Notes under the pieces: model-generated
Seen by the model: only the letters and a program-made list of their open reading frames with translations
Database searches by the model: none
Told to the model about the DNA's origin: nothing
NCBI GenBank assembly: GCA_965243395.1
Contig: CBDEUS010000002.1
Location: forward strand, 192,001 to 256,000
Length of the DNA stretch: 64,000 nt
Origin: Gammaproteobacteria bacterium
GTDB taxonomy: Bacteria; Pseudomonadota; Gammaproteobacteria; UBA4575
Direction: 5' to 3'
Shown here: piece after piece, positions 26,602-59,932 of the stretch
How positions within the stretch are numbered: position 1 is the first letter of the stretch
Layout of the letters: each line of letters starts with the position of its first letter
Position numbers and translations under genes: made by a program

Positions 26602-26680
26602 TACGTCCGCTTTGGGTCGACAGAAATTTGCTCCTACAATTTCTGCACTTCCACCATCCATGGTGGTCGTAGCGTACACA
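26602..26680. repeat. 30-bp 12-6-12 inverted-repeat site interrupted by a ~49-bp mini-element
   Basis: TACGTCCGCTTT-GGGTCG-A[insert 26621-26669]TAGCGTACACA. Confidence 0.6.
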
Positions 26681-26741: not shown

Positions 26742-27290
26742 TTAGATTTTTCCGTCCAATCCCATTTGATAATACTTGTGAGTAATCTCTTCTTGGTTTT
26801 CTAATAACCATTCAATATCAGGTTCATTATTCATTGCCTTATGAATTGCACTGGCCATGGCTTTACGATGGATATCAAATAAAATTTTATGATCCAGATC
26901 TTCTGCTTTTGACACCATAGGGTTCAACCAAACCGAAACAATGATGCCAATATCATTTACTTTATCTTTCGGAATGTCACCATTGCGTACTGCATCCAGA
27001 ACGCCATTTGCAATTGCACCTTGTACGGTACCCATTAAAATGTTGGTATAGCGGTCATCCTTTACGGTTACTTTGCTGACCATTAAAGTTGATGGTCTGA
27101 CTTGAATATCGGTGTTCATTATTGCAAGTACACGAGAATGTCCTTTTACTTGATCTCCAAGCAAGGTTGCAAATGCGGTGCCCACAGGCCCATCTAATTC
27201 ACCAATAACCACTTCTGGTTCAGCTGCGGTTCCAGGTGGACCACCTGCAACCAATGACTCACCTACACGCATTACTATTCTTTCAGACAT
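26742..27290 (-). CDS. fae: Formaldehyde-activating enzyme family, non-canonical (Fae2-like) paralogue
   Basis: VGESLV, GPVGTAF, RPSTLMVSKVT, QGAIANGVLDAV..G.IP and AM.NEP. AEPE replaces canonical AHID. Confidence 0.88.
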   Translation of the reverse strand: MSERIVMRVGESLVAGGPPGTAAEPEVVIGELDGPVGTAFATLLGDQVKGHSRVLAIMNTDIQVRPSTLMVSKVTVKDDRYTNILMGTVQGAIANGVLDAVRNGDIPKDKVNDIGIIVSVWLNPMVSKAEDLDHKILFDIHRKAMASAIHKAMNNEPDIEWLLENQEEITHKYYQMGLDGKI

Positions 27291-27353: not shown

Positions 27354-27383
27354 AATGTTCGCTATGTATCGATAGCAGACATT
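27354..27383. repeat. 30-bp 12-6-12 inverted-repeat site
   Basis: AATGTTCGCTAT-GTATCG-ATAGCAGACATT; arms are 10/12 complementary. Confidence 0.7.
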
Positions 27384-27484
27384 TTTAAGATTTGATTTGA
27401 ATAACCCAACATATTTATTATTTTAGTTTACCTATCCTTATTCTGATACAACATCCATGTTGTTACTCTTTTTCGTGAATCCAT

Positions 27485-54678: not shown

Positions 54679-55428
54679 TTAAATAGATAGTTTGTAACCG
54701 CGATGAATGCTAACGATTCCGCCGTTTAAATTTAAATAATCGCATTTTTCAAAACCTGCGGTTTCAATCATCGACCTCAGGGTTTCTTGATCAGGGTGTT
54801 TACGAATGGATTCAGCTAGGTACTGATAACTATCTGCATCTTTAGCAATAATCTCACCCATCCTTGGTAAAAACTTAAATGAGTAAGCATCATATATATC
54901 TTGCATCCATTTTTGTGGTTTAGAAAATTCCAACACTAATAATTGACCGCCAGGTTTTAATAATTTAAATATTTCGCGTAATGCTTTGCTCTTGTCAGTA
55001 AAATTACGCAAACCGAATGCAATCATCACACGATCAAAATGATCATCAGGGAAAGGCAAGTTCTCGCCCATCGCTTGCACATAACGAACATTATTTAACA
55101 AACCTTTATCCACCATGCGTCTACGACCCTCTTCTAGCATCGCACCATTGGGATCACATAAAATTACTGAACCCTGCTTGTCTAACTTCGGCACAATTAA
55201 AGTAGAGATATCACCTGTGCCTGCTGCCAAATCCAGAATTTGAAAATGGGGGCGGATATTTGCCAAGTGGATAAATTGTCGCTTCCATAATCGATGCATC
55301 CCGAATGACATCACATCATTCATCACATCATATTTGCCGGCGACCGACTCAAAGACAGCCGTAACTTTTTCAGTTTTCTCCTCAGGACTTACATCCTGAT
55401 AGCCAAAATGTGTGGATTTATCAGACAT
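54679..55428 (-). CDS. ubiE: Ubiquinone/menaquinone C-methyltransferase
   Basis: THFGY, YDVMND, FGLRN and YLAESI. Confidence 0.96.
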
Positions 55429-55553
55429 ACATGCTTAATTCTTATAGATATTTTCTGGTTTTCTTCTGGGCACAGTTTAAACAAAATCAGCGCCCAATGG
55501 GGATTAGATTTTGCTAGAGTTAGCCTAAGGTTGGCCAGGGTACTGCTAAAGAA

Positions 55554-55730
55554 ATGTTTGACTTGTCAAAAATACCATCACTACTCATGCTGATATGTTT
55601 TATTGGCATCGTAGTATCCATCTGGATTGCACTAGATCCCATCCGACAAAAACAAAGAAAACCGAAATATTTTTTAGTTACATTGGTTTTCTTTGCAGGG
55701 TTTTTACTAGTTGCTTGGTGGGACATGTGA
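55554..55730 (+). CDS. Small two-TM hypothetical protein (58 aa, not in the ORF track)
   Basis: MFDLSKIPSLLMLICFIGIVVSIWIALDPIRQKQRKPKYFLVTLVFFAGFLLVAWWDM: TM helix, basic loop, TM helix. Confidence 0.55.
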   Translation: MFDLSKIPSLLMLICFIGIVVSIWIALDPIRQKQRKPKYFLVTLVFFAGFLLVAWWDM

Positions 55731-55733
55731 GTG

Positions 55734-55788
55734 AGCGCAGGGTAGTAAGCGCAGGGATGCGCGAATATGATATCCATCAGGGATGATG
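55734..55788 (+). repeat. Cluster of CAGGGATG-loop hairpins
   Basis: GCGCA-GGGA-TGCGC at 55749-55762 and CATCA-GGGA-TGATG at 55775-55788; AGCGCAGGG is duplicated at 55734 and 55748. Confidence 0.6.
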
Positions 55789-55853
55789 CAACCAAATAAA
55801 GTTTGGTAAACTAAAATAATGCACCGGTTGGAAAATTCAAAGTATAAATTCAA

Positions 55854-55883
55854 AATGACTGTTAACGACCCAAAGCTGACATT
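55854..55883. repeat. 30-bp 12-6-12 inverted-repeat site (left flank of the orphan gene)
   Basis: AATGACTGTTAA-CGACCC-AAAGCTGACATT. Confidence 0.65.
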
Positions 55884-55903
55884 CATACTGGATCGGGTTT
55901 TTT

Positions 55904-56470
55904 GTGATTAAGTTGATTTGCAGGTTTATATTCCTAATTGTGATCACAATTCCTTTTGTCTCAACAGGAATTTGTGACTCGTGGAGTTTTCCAAAAAAAG
56001 CTGATGAAACTGTATATAAATACGGTGAAACCAAAATAATTAAAACAATAGATGGAAGAAATAACGATCAATATCCAGATTACATCATAGATATATATAA
56101 CAAAGACAAACTTGTTGCTAAATATAGAGGAATTTCATTTCAGCATATAGCTGCTTCTAAAAATAATGATGTCTTTATTGGTATTTCAAATGATGGGCTT
56201 CCTGGTACGGCTTTTGTTGTGTTTGATTCAAAAGGTAATCTGAGGATTGAAGCTAAGCATTATATGTTTCCACTTCAATACTGTGATGAATCAGTGACAC
56301 GATTTAGAGTGTGGTATGACAATGAAAACCCTAATCTTCATTTCATATATTCAGACTCTGATGAGTTTGAAGATATAGTACTAAATGGTTGTGGCGGTAA
56401 AGAAATAAAGATCATTGAGCATTTGTTCAATAGCAGGACATATGAGAGCCTGCCTGAAAACGCAGATTAA
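55904..56470 (+). CDS. Hypothetical exported protein, AT-rich
   Basis: Signal-like N-terminus; frequent ATA/AGA codons compared with neighbouring core genes. Confidence 0.75.
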   Translation: MIKLICRFIFLIVITIPFVSTGICDSWSFPKKADETVYKYGETKIIKTIDGRNNDQYPDYIIDIYNKDKLVAKYRGISFQHIAASKNNDVFIGISNDGLPGTAFVVFDSKGNLRIEAKHYMFPLQYCDESVTRFRVWYDNENPNLHFIYSDSDEFEDIVLNGCGGKEIKIIEHLFNSRTYESLPENAD

Positions 56471-56473
56471 ATA

Positions 56474-56503
56474 AATGACCGCTATTGGCCTAAAGCAGAC
56501 AAA
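56474..56503. repeat. 30-bp 12-6-12 inverted-repeat site (right flank of the orphan gene)
   Basis: AATGACCGCTAT-TGGCCT-AAAGCAGACAAA; 21/30 identical to 55854-55883. Confidence 0.65.
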
Positions 56504-56551
56504 TTTAAATAAGAATAATTAACTTTAATAAGAAAGTTAGTTTATTGTCCT

Positions 56552-56917
56552 TTAACCACTGTTTTTCCGCTCATAGCCCGCTTCTTTTAAACGTTCTAAG
56601 TAACGTGACCAATTTGCCTCTTTGTTTGTACCTAAATTATGTAAATGGTCCCAGGAAAAAATACCTGAATCATGGTTATCATCAAACACCAGTTGCACTG
56701 CATAATTGCCAACTGGATTGATCGCAGTAATATTTACATCTTCCTTTCCGACTTGCAGTACTTCTTGACCCGGTCCATGACCCTGCACTTCTGCAGAAGG
56801 CGAGTGTGTGCGCAAATATTCGCAAGTCAGTTTAAAATGCTTACCATCATCAAATTCTATTTCTAAAATTCTGGACTTTTGATGTAACTCAATTTTTGTG
56901 GGAACTGCTATAGCCAT
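56552..56917 (-). CDS. DUF971 (GBBH-like N-terminal) protein
   Basis: EYLRTHSPSAEVQGHG, VGNYA and HDSGIFSW. ATG at 56917 avoids overlap with hslU. Confidence 0.9.
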   Translation of the reverse strand: MAIAVPTKIELHQKSRILEIEFDDGKHFKLTCEYLRTHSPSAEVQGHGPGQEVLQVGKEDVNITAINPVGNYAVQLVFDDNHDSGIFSWDHLHNLGTNKEANWSRYLERLKEAGYERKNSG

Positions 56918-56942
56918 AAATATAAAATCCTGGTGCTCTTGC

Positions 56943-58268
56943 TCATAAGATGTACTTAGATAAATCTTGATCTTTAACAAGCTCTCCAATATTTTCATCT
57001 ACATACCCAGCATCTACGGTAAACGATTTACCGCTTTCATCCGGTGCGCTGTAGGAAATATTTTCTAATAGCCTTTCCATTACGGTATGCAAGCGACGTG
57101 CTCCAATATTTTCGGTAGATTCATTCACATCATGTGCAACTTGAGCAATTTTTCGTACGCCATCTTGTGCAAAATCGAGCTTTACACCTTCAGTATCTAG
57201 CAGTGCGGTATATTGCTCTGTTAAAGATGCATCCGGCTCAGTAAGAATTCGAACAAAATCGTCAGTTGATAGCGCTTTTAGTTCTACACGTATGGGTAAA
57301 CGACCTTGTAGTTCTGGAATAAGATCAGATGGTTTGGAAACATGAAACGCACCTGAGGCTATAAATAAAATATGATCTGTTTTAACGATACCGTATTTCG
57401 TGTTGACAGTGCAGCCTTCTACCAAAGGTAACAAATCGCGCTGCACCCCTTCACGTGATACGTCCGCACCACTAGTTTGGCTATTTTTAGCAACTTTATC
57501 GATTTCATCTAAAAATACGATGCCATTTTGCTCTACATTTTCTAGTGCGTTCGCTTTGAGCTCTTCTTCATTTACCAGTTTATGCGCTTCTTCATCCGTT
57601 AATGCCTTCATCGCATCTTTGATACGCATTTTTCGTGTTTTCTTTTTTCCAGTATTTAAATTTTGAAACATACCGGTTAACTGACTCGCCATTTCCTCCA
57701 TACCCGGCGGTGTCATAATCTCAACGCCTACGGGTGTTGCAGCTAAATCGATTTCGATTTCAGTATCGTCTAAATCACCTTCACGTAATTTTTTGCGAAA
57801 CTTTTGACGTGTTTCTAGATTGTAGTCAGGCCTCTCTTCGGATGGATCTACACGTGAGGGTACGAGAATATCTAAGATACGATCTTCCGCAGCTTCTTCA
57901 GCACGAAAGCGGACTTTTTCCATTTCTGTTTCGCGCATCATTTTGACAGCGGTATCAACCAAATCGCGAATGATGGAATCAACCTCTTTACCCACATAAC
58001 CTACTTCGGTGAATTTTGTTGCTTCAACCTTTATAAAAGGCGCATTGGCTAGTTTTGCCAAACGACGTGCGATTTCAGTCTTACCCACACCGGTAGGGCC
58101 TATCATTAAAATATTTTTAGGTGTGACTTCTACACGCAACTCTTCAGGCAATTGTAGGCGACGCCAACGATTACGTAATGCAATCGCAACGGCACGTTTG
58201 GCTTCATCCTGACCAACAATATGCTTATCAAGTTCTTGTACGATTTCACGTGGTGTCATGTTTGACAT
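56943..58268 (-). CDS. hslU: ATP-dependent protease ATPase subunit HslU
   Basis: [29 protein letters not shown] and DLSKYIL. Confidence 0.98.
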
Positions 58269-58960: not shown

Positions 58961-59932
58961 TTATTCGTCTTCGGTGAAGTCGTTATTTAAATTTCTTGGA
59001 TGTGTTTTTTTGGCACGAGGGTGGGCCTCGTCATACACCTGGGCAAGATGTTGAAAATCCAGATGTGTATACACTTGCGTAGTACTGATGTCAGCATGTC
59101 CGAGCATTTCTTGTACGGCACGCAAATCTCCGCTGGATTCTAATAAATGACTGGCAAATGAATGTCGCAACATATGTGGATGCACATGTTTATCAATGCC
59201 TTGTTCTCTTCCAAGTTGCGCCATACGTTGTTGCACCGCACGAGGAGATAATCGTTTACCACGATTATTCACGAATACGGCTAATTCATTTTCACTTGCA
59301 ATATTTGGGCGTGCTTCAAGCCAACGCTTTAATGCTTTACAGGCATTTGCGCCAATAGGTAAGTAGCGCATCTTGTTGCCTTTACCCATTACCTGAACTT
59401 GTGCTTGGTGGAGATCGATAGCATCTAAGTTTAGATTTACTAATTCTGCTAAACGTAAACCGGATGAGTACATCAATTCCATCATCGCTACATCACGTAG
59501 CTTAAGAGGATTTTGCGGCCCTTCATTAAGTAATCGATTAATTTCATCAACATCTAATAAATTAGGTAGTTTCTTCTGAATGCTGGGCCCGCTTACATCG
59601 GCTACAGGATTGTTCTCTACTAACTGCTCACGTTGTAAAAAGGTAAAAAAGCCACGGATAGCACTGAGTGAGCGATGCAGGCTCCTTGCGGAAACACCGC
59701 GTCTGCGTCGCGAACCGGCGAAATTGCGCACGTGCAGACTATCTACATCGCAACAATCATAAACATTTACGGCATTGATAAATTCGAAAAACTGTTGAAG
59801 GTCTCTTTGATAGCTATCTAATGTAGCGGGAGAGTAGCGGCGTTCATCCTGTAGATATCGCAGGTAACGCTGAAAAAGTTGTTGGGTAGTTTGTTGTCCT
59901 GTTTCAGGACTGGTTACTACTGCCATAGGCAA
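58961..59932 (-). CDS. xerC: Tyrosine recombinase XerC
   Basis: SSGLRLAEL, GKGNK, HPHMLRHSFASH, VQEMLGH and TTQVYTH; dapF-DUF484-xerC context. Confidence 0.95.
   Translation of the reverse strand: MPMAVVTSPETGQQTTQQLFQRYLRYLQDERRYSPATLDSYQRDLQQFFEFINAVNVYDCCDVDSLHVRNFAGSRRRRGVSARSLHRSLSAIRGFFTFLQREQLVENNPVADVSGPSIQKKLPNLLDVDEINRLLNEGPQNPLKLRDVAMMELMYSSGLRLAELVNLNLDAIDLHQAQVQVMGKGNKMRYLPIGANACKALKRWLEARPNIASENELAVFVNNRGKRLSPRAVQQRMAQLGREQGIDKHVHPHMLRHSFASHLLESSGDLRAVQEMLGHADISTTQVYTHLDFQHLAQVYDEAHPRAKKTHPRNLNNDFTEDE

Follow-up and report, generated by a model that had tools for sequence, protein, structure and literature searches.

We analyzed a stretch of 64,000 nucleotides (the window, to which all coordinates without a contig label refer) from the genome of a gammaproteobacterium of the lineage UBA4575, in which an orphan gene lies between two 30-bp sites in the interval separating ubiE from a DUF971 gene. 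We put the probability at roughly 55% that this orphan is a single-gene cassette of a system that is integron-like without being an integron. The sites, hereafter called t-sites, separate single accessory genes in fast-changing arrays, as integron sites do, and they are found across many bacterial groups. The center of the site sets an orientation that always matches the cargo open reading frame (ORF).

The source genome (G000; 2.58 Mb in two contigs, C1 and C2; GC content 38.6%) was searched as a whole by fuzzy matching and then with two profile hidden Markov models (nhmmer). This yielded 116 matches, 91 of which reached 15 bits. Two matches were left out of further scoring because of an indel; the remaining 114 were scored over all 30 positions and included 90 complete sites, 8 left halves, and 8 right halves. 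The family consensus reads AATGWCCGCT-N10-AGCGGACATT. Two center classes were distinguished, t1 (CGACCC; AACGACCCAA) and t2 (TGGCCG; ATTGGCCGAA), which have their arms in common (AATGWCCGCTWW and AAAGCGGACATT) and carry different asymmetric centers. In other phyla, the commonest variant is a perfect 12-6-12 arrangement, AATGTCCGCTTT-CGACCC-AAAGCGGACATT. In its letters, the consensus has the generic geometry of a tyrosine-recombinase core site (inverted arms of 11-13 bp flanking an asymmetric center of 6-8 bp), being 12-6-12 with an asymmetric center.

The sites were strongly clustered. Indeed, 85 of the 91 (93%) fell into 17 clusters of 2 to 14 sites that span 46 kb, or 1.8% of the genome, and the strand was uniform in 16 of these clusters. 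In 56 of 58 intervals of 150 to 3,500 bp between co-oriented neighbors, the longest ORF was on the site strand (binomial p 1e-14), its direction being the one set by the asymmetric center. These ORFs filled most of the available space, with a median ORF-to-gap ratio of 0.91; 37 of the 56 fitted tightly on either side, and 21 of the 56 terminated inside the downstream site, at the TGA of AATGA. The order t1-ORF-t2 was observed 25 times and t2-ORF-t1 8 times (p 0.0046). In regular arrays, for example at C1:232.7-236.1 kb, the ORFs are parted by a 103-bp composite of the form t2-43 bp-t1, the linker of which carries a conserved GGTTGGAA; the composite has inverted ends and folds at -17.2 kcal/mol (z -4.05). 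A replication-strand bias of the arrays was also considered and rejected, the pattern being mixed.

Site A (AATGACTGTTAACGACCCAAAGCTGACATT) is located 20 nt ahead of the GTG at 55904, and site B (AATGACCGCTATTGGCCTAAAGCAGACAAA) begins 3 nt past the stop at 56470. The two are identical at 21 of 30 positions, with 9 substitutions. A degenerate pattern of A and B matched only these two sites in the window and nothing in 100 dinucleotide shuffles. An earlier interpretation made without database searches (the sequence-only reading) had given the same coordinates, spacings, and identity, had recognized the same motif at 27354 and 26602, which we found to be a full t1 and a right-half site on the minus strand, and had raised the question of whether such sites pair around accessory genes or form arrays; our data agree with it on the former points and answer the question in the affirmative. 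It had also taken A and B for two copies of one site, whereas they belong to different center classes, t1 upstream and t2 downstream. The 12-bp inverted arms around a 6-bp spacer that it ascribed to both are real for the family: the palindrome belongs to the consensus and not to the worn copies A and B, in which the inverted arms are weak (7/12 each, manual count) and single-stranded folding of the plus strand was no better than that of shuffled sequences (z -0.27 and +0.94). The wear of A and B suggests that the orphan cassette is now fixed.

The complete unit consists, in order, of a leader element (U), a linker, t1, the ORF, and t2, inserted between tm58, a 58-aa ORF beside ubiE, and the DUF971 gene, beyond which hslUV and then xerC follow (Table 1). 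U and the linker constitute the upstream boundary of the unit, which lay beyond the description given in the sequence-only reading.

Table 1. Window coordinates of the orphan unit, its flanks, and the second module
Feature	Position	Strand	Evidence or remark
ubiE methyltransferase, conserved left flank	54679..55428	-	Pfam Ubie_methyltran 6.8e-87
tm58, 58-aa membrane ORF, conserved backbone	55554..55730	+	ORF listing; stop TGA overlaps U start
U element, leader repeat with two hairpins, core 55745-55803	55728..55826	+	BLAST, covariation
Linker (GGTTGGAAAATTC...)	55827..55853	+	sequence comparison: equals the segment ahead of t1 in the t2-43 bp-t1 composites of arrays
Site A, t1 class, center AACGACCCAA, both arms worn	55854..55883	+	nhmmer 30.5 bits, E 8e-7
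Orphan cassette gene, 188 aa from GTG start	55904..56470	+	predicted exported all-beta protein; GC 32.8%
Site B, t2 class, center ATTGGCCTAA, right arm worn	56474..56503	+	nhmmer 32.2 bits, E 2.4e-7
Right junction, decayed linker start (AAATTTAAATAAG...)	56504..56551	.	common to closest relative G012 despite a different insert there
DUF971/GBBH-like_N gene, conserved right flank	56552..56998	-	Pfam PF06155, 3.8e-32
xerC, 2.5 kb from the orphan cassette	58961..59932	-	NCBIfam TIGR02224, 370 bits versus cut-off 335
Right-half t1 closing the second module (center and right arm only)	26602..26631	-	versus consensus: left arm 4/10, center 8/10, right arm 8/10
Second-module cassette gene, formaldehyde-activating enzyme family	26742..27290	-	Pfam Fae, 1.1e-58
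Second module, U copy then full t1	27354..27462 (U 27396-27462; t1 27354-27383)	-	

The interval that holds the orphan is normally short: the distance between ubiE and DUF971 is ~140-210 bp in G015, G016, and G017, which represent three other genera. An empty allele, for which the sequence-only reading had advised looking in close relatives, was found in a congener (G006), where 75 bp separate the 58-aa ORF from DUF971 and neither U nor a site is present. Elsewhere among the relatives, the locus holds a different cassette between t1 and t2, 460 bp apart and followed by an inverted U (G011), two U-t1-ORF-t2 units (G001), or a U-t1-ORF-t2 arrangement with at least one cassette (G008). In the closest relative (G012), U is followed by a 1.55-kb insert without t1, a worn t2, and then a right junction of the G000 type, while G002 and G014 have inserts without sites. 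The backbone around these inserts is conserved: orthologs of ubiE occur in 27 of the 31 genomes searched, the source genome included, and tblastn detected tm58 at 9 of the 11 loci searched in congeners, among them the empty allele (L005). For tm58, a two-helix membrane ORF between ubiE and the cassette, Pfam gave no family over threshold.

Turnover is equally visible away from the orphan. Next to tRNA-Met, G012 has an array that is 16.3 kb long and contains at least 40 sites; in the counterpart in the source genome, the flanks, 88-89% identical, are separated by only 57 bp, devoid of sites and U. A 7.3-kb array of the source genome has only three cassette-sized matches among 14 congeners. For one of the three, the G004 copy has 73% identity over a stretch that begins at the ribosome-binding site and ends with the 3' t1, and its neighbors there are different. 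This cassette lies at C2:539 kb in the source genome, and its G004 copy is in an array whose flank is syntenic to C2:830 kb; the same cassette thus occupies nonsyntenic loci in two species. Besides this, ~160 bp downstream of the tRNA-Met beside the G012 array lies a second copy of the tRNA 3' end (L175:8700-9100; L163, G012:C1), a scar left at this hotspot by an island of the integrase type. A counterpart of a further cassette of the source genome (C2:541.4-542.1 kb) exists in G011 (L160, G011:C1:715857-716506) at 76% identity, with no t-site within 2 kb; this copy may be a gene outside the cassette context and possibly a source gene.

The cargo is as varied as the loci are unstable. All 59 cassette sequences were unique, none matching another cassette, and 2 of the 59 had weak matches elsewhere in the genome. 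Among the 66 cassette proteins there were hits to 43 Pfam families, and each of the 25 families listed was represented by a single protein; the 25 include GNAT, glyoxalase, short-chain dehydrogenase (SDR), SNase, cation efflux (CDF), SnoaL, GFA, and several DUFs. The GC content of the cassettes was 33.3%, compared to 38.6% for the genome.

The orphan itself matched no Pfam family and was absent from the 60 related genomes searched. Since five homologs with 44-72% identity exist in a library of 5.8 billion proteins, it is a real gene; one metagenomic homolog, in surrounding DNA of 53% GC, is bordered by a variant of the composite. Its AlphaFold model (mean predicted local distance difference test score, pLDDT, 69.8) matched nothing in the PDB at E<=0.001, beta-propeller-like rows appearing in Foldseek at E>=0.011; for the protein, the Atlas retrieved unnamed clusters at 0.94-0.96 and, only at 0.86, a lead to Tsi1. 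Portions of the gene are also covered, with 0-8 differences, by contigs from three further metagenome runs that belong to two other studies, indicating that the cassette is present in those runs too. No alternative allele was seen in these contigs.

To examine the spread of the sites, we counted t1 cores in related genomes and searched a collection of species genomes for an exact 23-mer core. There were 13-81 t1 cores in 13 of 14 members of the genus (none in G014), 113 in one genome of a sister genus, and 0-1 in four other genera. The 23-mer GCTWWCGACCCAAAGCGGACATT was found in at least 118 stretches of the collection. Among the matches listed were Alpha-, Beta-, and Gammaproteobacteria, Nitrospinaceae, and Gemmatimonadales, with the genera Sphingomicrobium, Sphingomonas, Caulobacter, Phenylobacterium, Kiloniella, Lysobacter, Noviluteimonas, and Dyella and the groups Woeseiaceae, Thiotrichales, Chromatiales, and Burkholderiales. 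Among the 118 loci listed, 74 had at least two sites and 27 at least four. Co-oriented arrays also occur at 60-68% GC, such as 10 sites within 8 kb in Caulobacter sp. 17J80-11, and in 92 of 118 intervals of these loci the longest ORF was co-oriented (low GC, 52/62; high, 37/53; middle, 3/3). The composite plus flanks had no match among 72,556 plasmids, and among viral contigs the t1 or t2 core was present in only 2 and 5 stretches. In the literature, the site strings matched unrelated primers only and longer strings appeared nowhere, and a search for nonintegron cassette systems returned integron and dif-module papers only, with no account of the site; supplementary tables and other supplements were outside the coverage of both searches. 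A protein of ~600 aa with TIR and TPR domains was encoded at 7 of the 118 site-bearing loci in different taxa (L030, L043, L076, L081, L092, L117, and one more) and may be a defense gene carried as cargo.

The t-sites and the U leader were put through the same covariation test. Across 73 t-sites, 77.9% of the arm cells were paired, versus 78.2% after shuffling, and 356 of 500 shuffles were as high. U behaved differently: over 21 copies from several genomes, 87.8% of the cells were paired, versus 76.9% in shuffled alignments (0 of 500 shuffles as high), and seven pairs had changed on both sides. U therefore is an element that folds, and the t-sites have the look of duplex sites with arms that decay independently. 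The lack of covariation in the t-site stems speaks in favor of duplex DNA, and not of a hairpin, as the form recognized.

We propose the following scheme. A tyrosine-type site-specific recombinase would bind the arms as a dimer and exchange strands at the edges of the 6-bp center. Only like centers would recombine, t1 with t1 and t2 with t2, an incompatibility that we infer and that would make t1-ORF-t2 an exchangeable unit. Such a unit could be excised, stacked into arrays through t2-43 bp-t1 composites, or swapped for another one, and excision, stacking, and swapping could generate the turnover observed from strain to strain. The half sites, 8 left and 8 right, would be consistent with breaks at one or the other edge of the center, but also with decay. 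A comparison of t2 between G012 and the source genome was tried as a means of locating the crossover point and set aside as ambiguous, as the G012 left arm still matches at 5-6 of 10 positions. In the laboratory, recombinase-mediated cassette exchange (RMCE) employs heterospecific lox or FRT sites, which have the same arms and mutually incompatible spacers. The t-system similarly places a gene between two co-oriented sites with the same arms and different spacers; unlike RMCE, it would be natural, and the incompatibility of t1 and t2 is a supposition.

Extending this reading to all taxa leads to a more tentative proposal, which we hold to be possible but doubtful: that the t-sites represent a second cross-phylum cassette system parallel to integrons. 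It would combine duplex 12-6-12 sites, conserved in sequence from Caulobacter to Nitrospinaceae, with heterospecific centers (t1 upstream and t2 downstream, so that each gene would form a natural exchange unit, as in RMCE), a structured leader with CsrA-type GGA loops that caps the arrays, and either an unrecognized recombinase family or a recruited host enzyme.

The resemblance to integrons and to attC clusters that have no integron-integrase (CALINs) is close. In both, single co-oriented ORFs, each with a recombination-type site, form arrays (as in 56 of our 58 intervals), the cargo is unique, foreign, and mixed, turnover between close relatives is near complete, and arrays occur without a neighboring integrase. 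This raises the question of whether the t-sites are divergent, duplex attC/attI boxes and the arrays CALINs served in trans by an IntI from another replicon or cell. A descent from integron sites is possible because t1, read as CGCTAAC-GACCC-AAAGCGGAC, has the R''-spacer-L'' layout of an attC half. Its complement carries GTTAGCG, a 7-mer that also ends two real attC sites of an integron in G014, some t2 copies read GGCCGTTAGGA, and the cargo types and single-ORF layout are typical of integron cassettes. CALINs devoid of IntI are moreover common, according to parts of Cury et al. 2016 (PMC4889954).

We nonetheless consider an integron origin quite unlikely. No IntI was found in the source genome (best score, 135 bits versus a cut-off of 265 for TIGR02249) or, at E<=1e-30, in five further site-bearing genomes. 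As a control, the same model detected four true IntI genes in the 31 genomes (in G014, G015, G019, and G029), and within 18-20 kb of them no t-site was found at E<=1, save one 7-bit match at chance level. G014 has an IntI and canonical attC sites (with ends ...AAC and GTTAGCG) and not a single t1 core, and G015 has both systems, its 45 t1 cores being elsewhere in the genome, apart from its integron. The architecture differs as well. Sites of the attC type are imperfectly palindromic, 57-141 bp long, and bounded by R'' (RYYYAAC) and R' (GTTRRRY). By inspection, the ends of the 103-bp composite read AATGWCC...GGACATT, without ...AAC/GTT... end boxes, and its AAC box is not at the end where attC would have it. 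When a folded strand is recognized, as for attC, the structure is kept and the sequence left free, while in the 30-bp t-sites the sequence is conserved across phyla and pairing is at the level of shuffles, which is the opposite. Finally, the t-system has two center classes, and its arrays are led by the structured repeat U and not by intI-attI-Pc. True integrons do occur in the genus and in the family (L143, G014:C20:30000-48005, and L144, G015:C29:1-19999; IntI 387 and 484 bits).

Host XerC and XerD were the next candidates, as they are the only simple tyrosine recombinases in the source genome and universal in the taxa that carry the sites. Altogether, this genome encodes five tyrosine recombinases, the other three being P4-like integrases that are paralogs of one another (59% and 29% identity) and lie 6-19 kb from arrays. 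A reading of the cassettes as Xer-dependent modules of the pdif/dif type, or as akin to integrative mobile elements exploiting Xer (IMEX), is also favored by the 12-6-12 geometry of the sites, which is near the 11-6-11 of dif, and by the positions of xerC and xerD in this genome, 2.5 kb and 3 kb from cassette modules. The dif modules of Acinetobacter plasmids, as presented in parts of PMC6449649 and PMC13141974, are likewise small accessory modules with arm-spacer-arm sites of ~28-30 bp that are recombined in trans by XerC/XerD encoded elsewhere and shuffle between replicons. We regard this possibility as very unlikely. The source genome has a canonical dif (ACTTCGCATAA-TATATA-TTATGTTAAAT, C1:959290, near the GC-skew maximum), the arms of which have only 4-6 of 11 positions in common with those of the t-sites (manual count), in line with the sequence-only reading, which had found the arms to match neither attC nor dif. 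Adjacent sites of dif modules alternate in orientation, as described in parts of the same two papers, whereas 16 of our 17 clusters are strand uniform, the relative polarity of t1 and t2 resting on their centers and not being certain. Unlike pdif modules, the t-sites are co-oriented, chromosomal, without a match in the plasmids, and present in several phyla.

With respect to the positions of these genes, xerD (G000:C1:426417-427335) is 3 kb from the cassette module at C1:422916, and xerC and xerD are each at most 3.5 kb from a module, for which the chance is ~8% for one given gene by a rough estimate. A metagenome-assembled genome that resembles a congener (L032) has t-sites ~1 kb from the orthologous xerD. 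In the space separating a P4-like integrase from an array, ARAGORN predicted a tRNA-like gene whose anticodon has four bases (cagc; L155:5037-5111, corresponding to G000:C2:160036-160110).

The main rival of the cassette reading invokes short repeats and homologous recombination. Repetitive extragenic palindromes (REPs), bacterial interspersed mosaic elements (BIMEs), and REP doublets (REPINs), which go with REP-associated tyrosine transposases (RAYTs), are short palindromes that often form linker-joined inverted doublets, lie at gene 3' ends, and number tens to hundreds of copies per genome. The t-sites, too, are short palindromes in linker doublets at the 3' ends of genes, in tens of copies, and could be selfish or structural repeats similar to REPs, BIMEs, or miniature inverted-repeat transposable elements (MITEs) that pile up in accessory islands and are turned over by homologous recombination, e.g., after DNA uptake, with no dedicated enzyme. 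The t2-t1 doublet, which folds strongly, resembles REPINs or BIMEs in its architecture, and a second repeat family, U, occupies the same intergenic niches. MITEs are noncoding elements that have terminal inverted repeats and a target-site duplication, and of these features the composite shows the inverted ends. In spite of this, we judge the repeat explanation unlikely. In none of six site-bearing genomes, the source genome included, did a RAYT (Y1_Tnp, PF01797) exceed the curated cut-off. The sites are concentrated in foreign-gene arrays instead of being dispersed, 93% of them within 1.8% of the genome, their orientation is coupled to that of the ORF (56/58), and their stems lack covariation. 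An identical 23-base core in distant phyla and at 34-68% GC would, furthermore, be unexpected for species-specific REPs.

Several observations weigh against the cassette reading, and three of them speak at the same time for repeats. First, no recombinase is linked to the sites. Among the families searched, the source genome lacks IntI, RAYT, serine recombinases, IS110, rve, DDE_Tnp_1, and TnpB. No recurrent family stood beside the sites among 3,100 ORFs from 118 loci of other genomes: the top neighbor clusters were the TIR-TPR protein (7 loci), acetyl-CoA synthetase (6 loci), and other housekeeping genes, and only 6 ORFs of these loci were tyrosine recombinases, none of them IntI. The sequence-only reading had proposed single-gene modules mobilized in trans by a recombinase and had looked to a tyrosine recombinase or HUH enzyme that co-occurs with the sites; the cassette part of this proposal is borne out by arrays, unique cargo, empty alleles, and relocation, and the enzyme part is not. 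As no dedicated enzyme was found among the families searched, the arrays of the source genome would be enzyme-less relics, an analog of CALIN clusters. Second, a target site for insertion is not evident, because both empty alleles lack a site and U. Third, in Sphingomonadales, the sites also occur as REP-like tandem hairpins with no ORF between them.

The remaining objections concern the sites and their products. The sites A and B are degenerate copies. Intervals of the type t1-t1 were found 13 times and t2-t2 12 times (10 with a co-oriented ORF and 2 with an opposite one), and many array boundaries are single sites, so the two-center rule is not strict. Assembled contigs, which cannot show rare forms, yielded neither circles nor hybrid sites nor deletion alleles. 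Run X1 gave four joints, in which the shorter side had 25-34 matching letters and one of which contained the linker of another array; given the short matches and the foreign linker, we read these joints as cross-mapping of other t-sites and not as circles or deletions.

The sites could also be regulatory elements that travel with the genes, serving a conserved transcription factor as operators or acting at the RNA level as hairpins for termination or processing. They coincide exactly with gene boundaries, the stop codon of 21 of 56 ORFs being within the site, and this, like the neighboring U, which is structured and probably RNA, would be in agreement with such a role. However, the sites are not followed by a T-tract, a scan of 55400-56700 gave no terminator-like site, and the flat covariation gives no signal of RNA structure. 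A regulatory role would leave the arrays of unrelated foreign genes, the empty alleles, and the relocation unexplained, and we consider it highly improbable.

Integrons are the textbook route by which bacteria stockpile and shuffle single genes, and, to our knowledge, only the dif modules of Acinetobacter are comparable beyond them. A third cassette system, if confirmed, would widen the known routes of accessory-gene flow. The t-site system is chromosomal and occurs in many free-living Proteobacteria and beyond, with one nearly invariant 30-base site. If our reading is correct, it would account for many orphan genes wedged into conserved intervals, provide a simple sequence tag for mining cassette metagenomes, and point to a recombinase with a short, defined, and directional target, a potentially useful tool. 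Because covariation is absent from the t-sites and strong in U, the mode of recognition is directly testable.

The U element deserves separate mention. Counting the copy at the orphan locus, BLAST found 19 matches in the source genome. The start of U coincides with the flanking gene's stop codon, and the element is direct at the start of arrays and inverted at their ends; at the orphan locus, its first hairpin is partly duplicated in tandem (55730-55756). There was no Rfam match at E<=10 and no promoter-like site in the single array leader scanned. RNAs bound by CsrA/RsmA carry GGA in hairpin loops, two or more per RNA. Both hairpin loops of U read CA-KGGA-TG and, by analogy, resemble the CsrA-binding consensus, and the ~60-nt motif is possibly a separate, new RNA motif. 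A U copy also heads the second module of the window, where the Fae gene (26742-27290, minus strand) is carried as a U-t1-ORF-half-site cassette.

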